Positions 25,551 to 26,459 of a stretch of DNA of 64,000 nucleotides are shown in pieces (within the stretch, counting starts at the first letter, position 1; every line of letters begins with the position of its first letter). The notes below the pieces were generated by a model, which was not told the origin of the DNA, did not search any database, and was given only the letters and a program-made list of their open reading frames with translations. Source of the stretch: Trypanosoma brucei (lineage: Eukaryota); the NCBI GenBank assembly GCA_000002445.1, contig CM000207.1, forward strand, positions 1,728,001 through 1,792,000, written 5' to 3'. Made by a program: the position numbers and the translations under genes.

Positions 25551-26459
25551 TCTGCAAACGGTTGGATGTTATTTGTTGCCACCCCTTTCCTAAGTGGTGC
25601 CATCACTATGCGCATTTCAAGCTTTCACTTACACCTTCAAAAAAATATTCCTCTCTCCTCCCCGACTCTATAGTTGAAAAGAAAGTAAATTATAATACTA
25701 TCAATGTCTGCTCAAGCCCATACATACCTCTGTGATGCGTGGAACCGCGATAAGGTGATGGCCATCGTCCAGTTTCTTCCCATGGCCCTTGAGGGTCCTG
25801 CAAGGACTGCCGGGTGCGAATCTCTTGCACTGTCACTCGGCAACCTTGCGAGGATGGGTGATGCGTATCGTGCCGTCACTCGTCTTTCCCTTCTGGCAAA
25901 TGCACTGTCAAAACCAACATTAACTTCCCTCTCCAAACCCACTGGTGATATGGTCGCGTCGCGGATCGATCAATTGTCACACCTGTTCCACATTGGTTTC
26001 TGCTTGAATGAAAATACTGCTGTACTTGCGGGTCATGGTGTTTTCCCCAAAAGTCTTCACCGCCTCAGTGGAGTTGCCGTGCTGTGTTGGATGTACACGC
26101 TGGCGCTCGGCATTGTTCGACAATTGTACCTATTTGTGAAGCTCAGGCCGCGGCAGGCGTCCCGTGGCGCTGGAGCTGGTGACGATAAGAAAGTCCCAGC
26201 TTACACATACCTCGAATTGAAACGGGCGTTTGTAAACTTATTGAAGTTGGTGTGCTACTTCCTGTTCGCCCTGACATGCCTCCCTGAAGGCAAACCGCAG
26301 CTTTTGGCTAATGCCCGCGGACCTCTTGTGCCTTTGCATGTGATGGTGAAGGCGCTGTCACCCAATCCGCTACATGCCAGCAATACTGTGCGCGGGTTGT
26401 TGGGTTTGATTGCGTCTGTGTGTGAATTCTATTGAAAAGGACTGTCATATTATCATTAT
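25551..26459 (+). repeat. Segmental duplication unit B, copy 1 (GIM5 gene with 150 bp of the 5' leader)
   Basis: It matches 28937-29839. Identity is near-perfect outside a divergent patch of about 140 bp (26100-26245 vs 29490-29630). The copies diverge right after the stop codon (tattattatt... vs gatgtatctg...). Confidence 0.85.
25704..26435 (+). CDS. GIM5A: GIM5-type glycosomal membrane protein (PEX11-related), upstream copy
   Basis: A 243-aa protein with a PEX11-like N-terminus (NRDKVMAIVQF). It belongs to a tandem pair that is identical except for an internal/C-terminal cassette. This arrangement matches the published description of T. brucei GIM5A/GIM5B as I recall it; which copy is A and which is B is not certain. 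Confidence 0.7.
   Translation: MSAQAHTYLCDAWNRDKVMAIVQFLPMALEGPARTAGCESLALSLGNLARMGDAYRAVTRLSLLANALSKPTLTSLSKPTGDMVASRIDQLSHLFHIGFCLNENTAVLAGHGVFPKSLHRLSGVAVLCWMYTLALGIVRQLYLFVKLRPRQASRGAGAGDDKKVPAYTYLELKRAFVNLLKLVCYFLFALTCLPEGKPQLLANARGPLVPLHVMVKALSPNPLHASNTVRGLLGLIASVCEFY

Follow-up and report, generated by a model that had tools for sequence, protein, structure and literature searches.

In the tandem arrays of T. brucei, concerted evolution is widely combined with local differentiation (Jackson 2007, PMC1855330), and the survival of a differentiated island within genes that evolve in concert is a well documented process in this species. Closest to the locus described here are the PGK A/B/C chimaera and the hexose transporters THT1/THT2. 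Like GIM5, these genes are homogenised by conversion while their UTRs or selected segments stay distinct, and their isoforms differ in role or expression (PMC1855330). The main text of that survey does not mention GIM5 itself (PMC1855330).

GIM5A and GIM5B are known tandem paralogues that encode integral glycosome membrane proteins of the PEX11 family, and the pair has already been published. The primary descriptions are those of Maier et al. 2001 (Mol Microbiol 39:1443) and Voncken et al. 2003 (J Biol Chem 278:35299). The tandem copies are 88% identical, with functions described as non-redundant but overlapping; the proteins are essential and abundant in the glycosome membrane, and the reason for having two of them is considered an open question (PMC9512073). 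In bloodstream forms, deletion of GIM5A causes no growth defect and yet lowers ether phospholipids by 40-70%, and depletion of GIM5B in the GIM5A-deletion background is lethal (PMC5539062). GIM5 also serves in the literature as a carbonate-resistant marker of the glycosomal membrane, and a published alignment already displays the two loop sequences that are the subject of this analysis (Suppl. Fig. 9, PMC9512073). Leaving aside the primary papers of Maier 2001 and Voncken 2003, the surveyed literature contains no statement that the fixed differences are all confined to one 108-nt island, that the flanks show concerted evolution between strains, or that the conserved loop cysteines were lost from GIM5A; the primary papers may well already state the confinement to an island. 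What is added here is modest: the placement of the stable differences in one loop, the concerted evolution between strains, the loss of the conserved loop cysteines in GIM5A, and the apparent restriction of the dimorphism to Trypanozoon.

Layout of the locus and extent of the divergent patch

The window, that is, the whole stretch of 64,000 nucleotides that was analyzed, comes from chromosome 9 of T. brucei brucei TREU927 and carries GIM5A and GIM5B in tandem on the + strand. The sequence-only reading had recognized both genes as GIM5, and protein identity confirmed this: the product of GIM5A is 100% identical to XP_827419 (Gim5A, TREU927) and that of GIM5B is identical to EAN77090 (Gim5B, TREU927). 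When GIM5A was queried against 5.8 billion proteins, Gim5A of TREU927 was retrieved at 100% and Gim5B at 88% identity, with the T. b. gambiense DAL972 proteins among the cluster members. Both copies also match the Pfam PEX11 family (PF05648, cut-off 23.8), with 42.7 bits and E 6e-11 for GIM5A and 44.6 bits and E 1.6e-11 for GIM5B. The published gene IDs are Tb927.9.11580 for GIM5A and Tb927.9.11600 for GIM5B (PMC3814921). The features of the locus, with the evidence for each, are the following.

24472..25491, + strand: upstream neighbour, a 339-aa ORF for a conserved hypothetical protein (ORF list); outside the repeat, syntenic left border
25551..25703, + strand: homogenised GIM5A 5' leader, the 153 nt before the ATG (alignment); one difference from the B leader, at 25671
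25704..26435, + strand: GIM5A coding sequence, Tb927.9.11580, 243 aa, PEX11 family (ORF list, Pfam, protein identity)
26130..26237, + strand: A-type divergent patch, codons 143-178, LFVKLRPRQASRGAGAGDDKKVPAYTYLELKRAFVN (alignment, codon analysis, AF2)
26238..26456, + strand: homogenised GIM5A 3' block, codons 179-243 plus 21 nt past the stop (alignment); one difference from B, at 26316
26457..28940, no strand: unique 2.48-kb spacer, GIM5A 3' UTR / intergenic; shares no relation with the sequence that follows GIM5B
28941..29093, + strand: homogenised GIM5B 5' leader (alignment)
29094..29819, + strand: GIM5B coding sequence, Tb927.9.11600, 241 aa, PEX11 family (ORF list, Pfam, protein identity)
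29520..29621, + strand: B-type divergent patch, codons 143-176, MLSKMRGHCTAAAASGDDKRKTCPYGGCKRVMVD (alignment, codon analysis, AF2)
29622..29840, + strand: homogenised GIM5B 3' block, codons 177-241 plus 21 nt (alignment)
31118..31813, + strand: downstream neighbour, right border; syntenic with the gene after the T. grayi GIM5 pair

Pfam searches with the upstream 339-aa ORF (24472..25491) and with the downstream neighbour (31118..31813) gave no match. The former is 66% identical to the 328-aa gene that precedes the GIM5 pair of T. grayi, and the latter matches its T. grayi counterpart in tblastn at 45% identity (E 3e-61). Global alignment delimited a unit A of 906 nt (25551-26456) and a unit B of 900 nt (28941-29840). 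Homology begins abruptly and extends from 153 nt upstream of each ATG to 21 nt after each stop; the start of unit B, previously placed at 28937, moves to 28941 in the alignment. The 3' block of GIM5A stops at a (TAT)n microsatellite, detected by TRF as an array at 26448-26476. The spacer that follows (26457..28940) is without a long ORF in the ORF list, and a repeat search of these 2.5 kb returned nothing beyond short microsatellites. An Rfam search of positions 24000-32000 gave no credible match, the weak AniS hit at 30897-31007, downstream of GIM5B, being below the gathering threshold (E 0.07). We also considered the spacer as the leftover of the RING-finger gene that lies between the GIM5 genes of T. 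grayi and T. melophagium, of which tblastn found no trace.

Between the two units, 65 aligned columns differ, and 62 of these 65 fall inside positions 26130-26237 of A (108 nt), which correspond to 29520-29621 of B (102 nt). The binomial probability that at least 62/65 differences fall in 108/906 columns is 1.6e-53. Identity is about 43% within this patch, and the flanks differ at 3/798 positions, namely 25671 (T/C, in the 5' leader), 26104 (C/T, Ala134Val) and 26316 (C/A, Arg205Ser). Specifically, identity in 20-nt windows ranges from 0.30 to 0.55 within the patch and from 0.95 to 1.00 elsewhere, so that divergence is confined to one patch and is not evenly spread along the gene. The sequence-only reading had therefore rightly described a sharp patch inside near-identical copies, but its borders (26100-26245 and 29490-29630) were too generous, and the 134 identical N-terminal codons that it counted are in fact 142 codons with one substitution, at codon 134. 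The two patch peptides that it quoted were correct, as was the length difference of two codons, the B patch being 6 nt shorter than the A patch.

A patch of this kind might be an artefact of assembly or annotation, produced by a chimeric consensus of alleles or by a mis-joined repeat. Short-read assemblies do break or collapse at repeats of about 900 nt; the contig of T. equiperdum OVI begins inside GIM5A, and GCA_003543875.1 shows one copy. We compared TREU927 with T. b. gambiense DAL972 (both copies), T. equiperdum OVI (B and only the 3' part of A), GCA_003543875.1 and a Logan contig. Both patches were found in the same order in TREU927 and DAL972, which also share the gene order GIM5A-GIM5B; OVI contributes a further A patch, and four more sequences carry a B patch. 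The GIM5 proteins of DAL972 have in addition been deposited under separate GenBank accessions (CAB94856/CAB94857), and both proteins appear in mass-spectrometry data (PMC5436138). Since independent assemblies carry the same two patches, we regard an artefact as ruled out, with a negligible residual probability.

Gene conversion in the flanks

Comparison of the two strains for which both copies were available revealed how the flanks have evolved. At six sites of the 5' block (25574, 25575, 25647, 25667, 25781 and 25967) the A and B copies of TREU927 are identical to each other, as are those of DAL972, and the strains differ; four of the six (25574, 25575, 25647 and 25667) lie within the leader. 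Where A and B do differ in the flanks, a single copy of a single strain carries the deviating base. The fixed A/B differences, on the other hand, all fall within 26130-26235 (61/61), with none outside the patch. Across the 5' block, 2/579 positions separate the paralogues of one genome and about 9/579 the orthologues of the two strains, and the unique spacer shows 1.2% substitutions between TREU927 and DAL972. Silent divergence follows the same division: pS is 0 in the flanks (155 silent sites) versus 0.83 in the patch (25 silent sites), where 6 of the 11 codons that specify the same residue in both copies differ at the third position.

The shared strain-specific sites, the lack of any fixed flank difference and the contrast in pS together uphold the earlier proposal that the flanks have been homogenised by gene conversion. 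Recurrent conversion keeps the 153-nt leader, codons 1-142, and codons 179-243 with the adjoining 21 nt near-identical, whereas the island has been left outside every conversion tract and carries old divergence. As silent sites are saturated in the patch and pS is 0 in the flanks, the island is old and the flanks have been exchanged recently and repeatedly. In GIM5A of DAL972, the last patch position, 26235, which is silent, carries the B-type base, as if the edge of a conversion tract had shifted by a few bases.

The encoded loop and its distribution among trypanosomes

The AF2 models of both isoforms are all-helical, with a helical N-terminal part and two hydrophobic helices in the C-terminal half, as in the PEX11 family. 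In the model of GIM5A (mean pLDDT 79.9), helices at 116-146 and 169-191 are separated by a stretch in which pLDDT falls below 50 (150-164); the corresponding elements of GIM5B (mean pLDDT 82.5) are helices at 116-152 and 167-189 and low pLDDT (<50) at 152-165. Kyte-Doolittle hydropathy peaks at about 129-136 and 181-186. Taken together, the modelled helices and the hydropathy peaks assign the patch (143-178) to the inter-helix linker and its juxta-membrane ends, so that according to the models the island encodes the end of helix 1, a predicted disordered linker and the start of helix 2. That the patch encodes a loop had been anticipated from the sequence, and agrees with its position between two hydrophobic helices and with the disordered centre in the AF2 models of both isoforms.

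Maier et al. 2001 reportedly placed the termini of GIM5 in the cytosol. Those of TbPEX11 are cytosolic as well (PMC10469627). With both termini in the cytosol, the loop would lie on the matrix side of the glycosomal membrane, an orientation predicted from the topology of the PEX11 family and from that reported for GIM5. The net charge of the loop is basic (+5 / +4), which lends no independent support to a matrix orientation. The isoforms also differ in their cysteines, of which the GIM5A loop has none and the GIM5B loop three. The cysteine of the motif ECKR, present in all seven outgroup Trypanosoma GIM5 sequences, is kept in GIM5B and replaced by Leu in GIM5A.

Within Trypanozoon, the patches are near-invariant. 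The A patch is identical in TREU927 and OVI and has one silent change in GIM5A of DAL972 (three assemblies), and the B patch is identical in all five Trypanozoon sequences compared. Variable sites number 1 in the two patches versus 13 in the flanks, at an overall strain diversity that is very low. In GCA_003543875.1 one B-type gene stands alone, with the A-upstream flank on one side and the B-downstream flank on the other; the second copy was either collapsed in the assembly or truly lost. For T. evansi, one annotated copy has been reported (PMC6115888).

Outside Trypanozoon, two loop types were found in none of the species sampled, among which T. congolense was represented by one protein sequence only. 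In T. grayi, synteny is conserved and the gene order is 328-aa gene, GIM5, RING-finger gene, GIM5 and 247-aa gene. Its two GIM5 copies are about 85% identical throughout the coding sequence and have unrelated UTRs, and the loop-coding windows are among the least similar (0.67-0.70). We rejected an orthology of A and B to the upstream and downstream T. grayi copies, as the patch identity matrix gives no such pairing. T. melophagium has at least four units of GIM5 plus RING gene that are 99.3% identical over the whole 2.14 kb. T. cruzi has arrays of at least three GIM5 copies with identical loops; a loop dimorphism in these arrays was thus ruled out, every T. cruzi copy having the same loop. The two-loop dimorphism therefore appears to be restricted to Trypanozoon.

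The two halves of the loop differ in their conservation. Across kinetoplastids no part of GIM5 varies more than the N-terminal half, which in Leishmaniinae is shorter by about 21 residues. The C-terminal half contains KVVPYTHEECKRAVVNLVK, a motif without variation in T. cruzi, T. c. marinkellei, T. conorhini and T. rangeli; T. vivax and T. congolense retain most of it, and both T. brucei copies have broken it. Counting a column as conserved when it is conserved in at least 5/7 other Trypanosoma sequences, we obtained 22 conserved columns in the patch, of which A keeps 13 and B keeps 7 (both copies 5, A only 8, B only 2, neither 7). In the flanks, 134/159 conserved columns (84%) are kept by both copies. 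The B patch is only 0.18-0.33 identical to every other trypanosome loop. Column retention and identity values together show that the ancestral loop is homologous to both T. brucei loops, that both are unusually derived and that B is the outlier.

The outlying position of B, as well as the very sharp borders on both sides and the saturated silent sites, would also be expected if a recent duplication had been followed by replacement of the loop of one copy with a short foreign or ectopic segment, taken from a third paralogue or an unrelated donor. We consider such a replacement highly improbable. Alignment of the B patch to A and to other species is codon for codon and needs only two gaps, each of 1 codon; this homology makes transfer from a donor elsewhere in the genome unlikely. 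Moreover, B keeps K146, R148, GDDK, Y, CKR and V, as well as the cysteine conserved in the other sampled Trypanosoma GIM5. A short-word blastn search for a donor of either patch returned only the patches themselves, with no related sequence elsewhere in the 64-kb window, and among the 5.8 billion proteins there were only three GIM5-type clusters (Trypanozoon and T. congolense), with no third loop type. A frameshift origin of the B patch was tried and discarded, as the six-frame translations of both patches are without cross-frame similarity.

Persistence of the island and comparison with known systems

Our overall reading, to which we give a probability of about 0.8, is that the locus consists of the known GIM5A and GIM5B genes with flanks undergoing conversion, and that an old island encoding a loop has stayed outside the conversion tracts, presumably held there by heterology and selection together. 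In the mechanism that we propose, inter-locus conversion would homogenise an old duplicate pair in all stretches with long runs of identity. Heteroduplex formation would halt at the edges of the loop-coding stretch, presumably the least similar part, and selection would act at least mildly against any conversion or crossover by which one loop type is lost, the isoforms being not fully redundant. That selection keeps two distinct isoforms, as the sequence-only reading had suggested, is plausible; whether selection is a necessary ingredient of the persistence of the island we see as roughly an even question. The pN/pS of the patch is about 0.5, a value that is uninformative since pS is saturated there. 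On the one hand, observations that speak for selection are the constraint on loop residues elsewhere, the different knock-out phenotypes of the two genes and the near-invariance of the patches in Trypanozoon. On the other hand, the viable gim5a deletion and the one single-B assembly speak against it, and the strains are too similar to show constraint.

The island could also have persisted by a neutral, mechanical escape, in which conversion, needing runs of identity, stops at the most diverged stretch, and the two loops are functionally equivalent and under no selection. We judge this possible, at somewhat less than even odds. It would agree with the high variability of the N-terminal half of the loop across kinetoplastids, and the T. 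grayi copies, with their loop windows among the least similar, would represent a plausible pre-conversion state. Further points in its favour are a MatE transporter pair in the same window with two similar islands, the viability of the gim5a deletion (PMC5539062) and the single-B arrangement in one assembly, as well as the structural heterogeneity reported to limit conversion (Jackson 2007, PMC1855330). However, variation in the C-terminal half of the patch is restricted in other species, given the invariance of KVVPYTHEECKRAVVNLVK in the T. cruzi clade, and both loops broke this motif, with A retaining 13/22 and B 7/22 conserved columns against 134/159 in the flanks. In the repair of double-strand breaks, gap repair can replace a heterology of 108 nt that has 579 and 219 nt of identical sequence on its two sides. 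Survival of the island in every sampled two-copy Trypanozoon genome is therefore not automatic. The published phenotypes also differ, as deletion of GIM5A alone cuts ether lipids (PMC5539062).

A more far-reaching proposal, which we advance tentatively and regard as rather unlikely, is that the dimorphism is a Trypanozoon innovation maintained against conversion, with isoforms that have different jobs on the matrix side. Given that the loop of GIM5B carries the ECKR cysteine and two more and that of GIM5A none, the isoforms would then differ in a dimerisation that depends on redox state or disulfides, or in the binding of a matrix partner. If true, this could explain the drop in ether lipids upon loss of GIM5A alone, and also why both T. 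brucei loops have left a motif which the T. cruzi clade keeps unchanged.

Under the reading that we prefer, conversion in the flanks has as its consequence two isoforms that differ stably only in this loop, encoded by transcripts with unrelated 3' UTRs. With every stable difference in the 36-residue loop, and with 3' UTRs that share no relation, a function specific to one isoform has to reside in the loop or in the control of expression, which narrows the question of why trypanosomes keep two GIM5 genes. The 3' UTR is the usual site of expression control in trypanosomes, and as those of GIM5A and GIM5B are unrelated, the two mRNAs can be regulated separately. In the slender-to-stumpy transition, a compiled table gives changes of -2.96 for GIM5B versus +1.03 for GIM5A in one data set, and of -1.75 versus -1.61 in a second (PMC3957582), which is no more than suggestive of differential regulation.

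The near-identity of the copies also has practical implications. One primer pair published for qPCR of 'GIM5B' is an exact match to both copies. Both GIM5A and GIM5B have been highlighted in SILAC-MS data (PMC5436138), in which, judging from the sequences, telling them apart needs peptides that span A/B differences, nearly all of which lie in the patch. Reagents directed against the shared 800 nt cannot separate the genes, and isoform-specific peptides, probes and RNAi must use the patch or the 3' UTRs.

From an evolutionary point of view, the GIM5 pair is one more case of concerted evolution with a surviving island. The MatE transporter pair of the same window (56038-57549 and 57853-59364) is, like GIM5, a tandem with otherwise identical coding sequences, and 35/36 of its differences fall in two islands (56157-56211 and 56838-56901). 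These islands, seen in the TREU927 window only, are shorter and less diverged than the GIM5 patch, with 23/55 nt and 12/64 nt differing. The primate L/M opsins, like other duplicates whose conversion is opposed at a few functional sites, offer a more distant parallel, in which neighbouring paralogues convert each other while a short, functionally decisive segment stays differentiated. In the opsins the selected function, spectral tuning, has been demonstrated, whereas for the GIM5 loop an isoform-specific biochemical function is hypothetical. Finally, the distinguishing parts of the PGK and THT genes are terminal extensions or whole gene blocks, whereas in GIM5 they form a single internal island of 36 codons with both flanks converted.

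Coding differences between the GIM5 copies and the primers that match both

Beyond the patch, the divergent island between the two GIM5 copies, only two coding differences separate GIM5A from GIM5B in TREU927, at 26104 (Ala134Val) and 26316 (Arg205Ser) of the window. Both are non-synonymous and affect GIM5A; Ala134 is common to the GIM5A of TREU927 and T. equiperdum OVI, and Arg205 is restricted to TREU927 among the sequences compared. The qPCR primers given in PMC7094864 for "GIM5B (Tb927.9.11600)" have exact, equal matches in GIM5A (25846-25863 and 25919-25940) and GIM5B (29236-29253 and 29309-29330), and the assay therefore reads the sum of both transcripts.

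GIM5 copy number and repeat units in other trypanosomes

Only one GIM5 gene, carrying the B patch, was found in the Trypanozoon assembly GCA_003543875.1 (CM010680.1, 4811-8710), directly adjoined by the GIM5A-upstream gene on one side and the GIM5B-downstream gene on the other. Behind this single-gene state lies either a repeat that collapsed or a genuine unequal crossover that deleted GIM5A and the spacer.

A small membrane-anchored RING-finger (zf-C3HC4) gene follows each GIM5 copy in T. grayi and T. melophagium, where it belongs to the GIM5 repeat unit:

L005 (T. grayi) 5192-5536, RING-finger gene
L006 (T. melophagium) 7300-7677, RING-finger gene
L006 9438-9815, RING-finger gene
L006 11578-11955, RING-finger gene

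In T. melophagium, L006 6001-12741 holds at least four units of GIM5 plus RING-finger gene, each of 2.14 kb and 99.3% identical over their full length. GIM5 copy 1 of this array differs from copies 2 and 3 at five positions, all inside its own first 24 nt. In T. brucei, the 2.5-kb spacer that separates GIM5A from GIM5B (26457-28940) shows no trace of the RING-finger gene.

Other tandem duplicates of the window

Further tandem pairs lie in the same window:

9665-10090 and 10276-10701, ribosomal protein L23 (Pfam Ribosomal_L14)
10869-11366 and 13728-14225, ribosomal protein L27a
11560-13251, 563-aa ORF between the L27a copies
56038-57549 and 57853-59364, MatE-family transporters (Pfam PF01554), 503 aa each

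Just two positions differ between the coding sequences of the L23 pair, whose flanks are unrelated, and likewise two between those of the L27a pair, in which homology continues more than 250 nt beyond the stop codon. The two MatE coding sequences differ at 36 positions in total, of which 23 fall within 56157-56211 and 12 within 56838-56901; apart from the remainder, they are identical elsewhere. The MatE and GIM5 pairs display the same pattern, that of islands in a homogenised pair.
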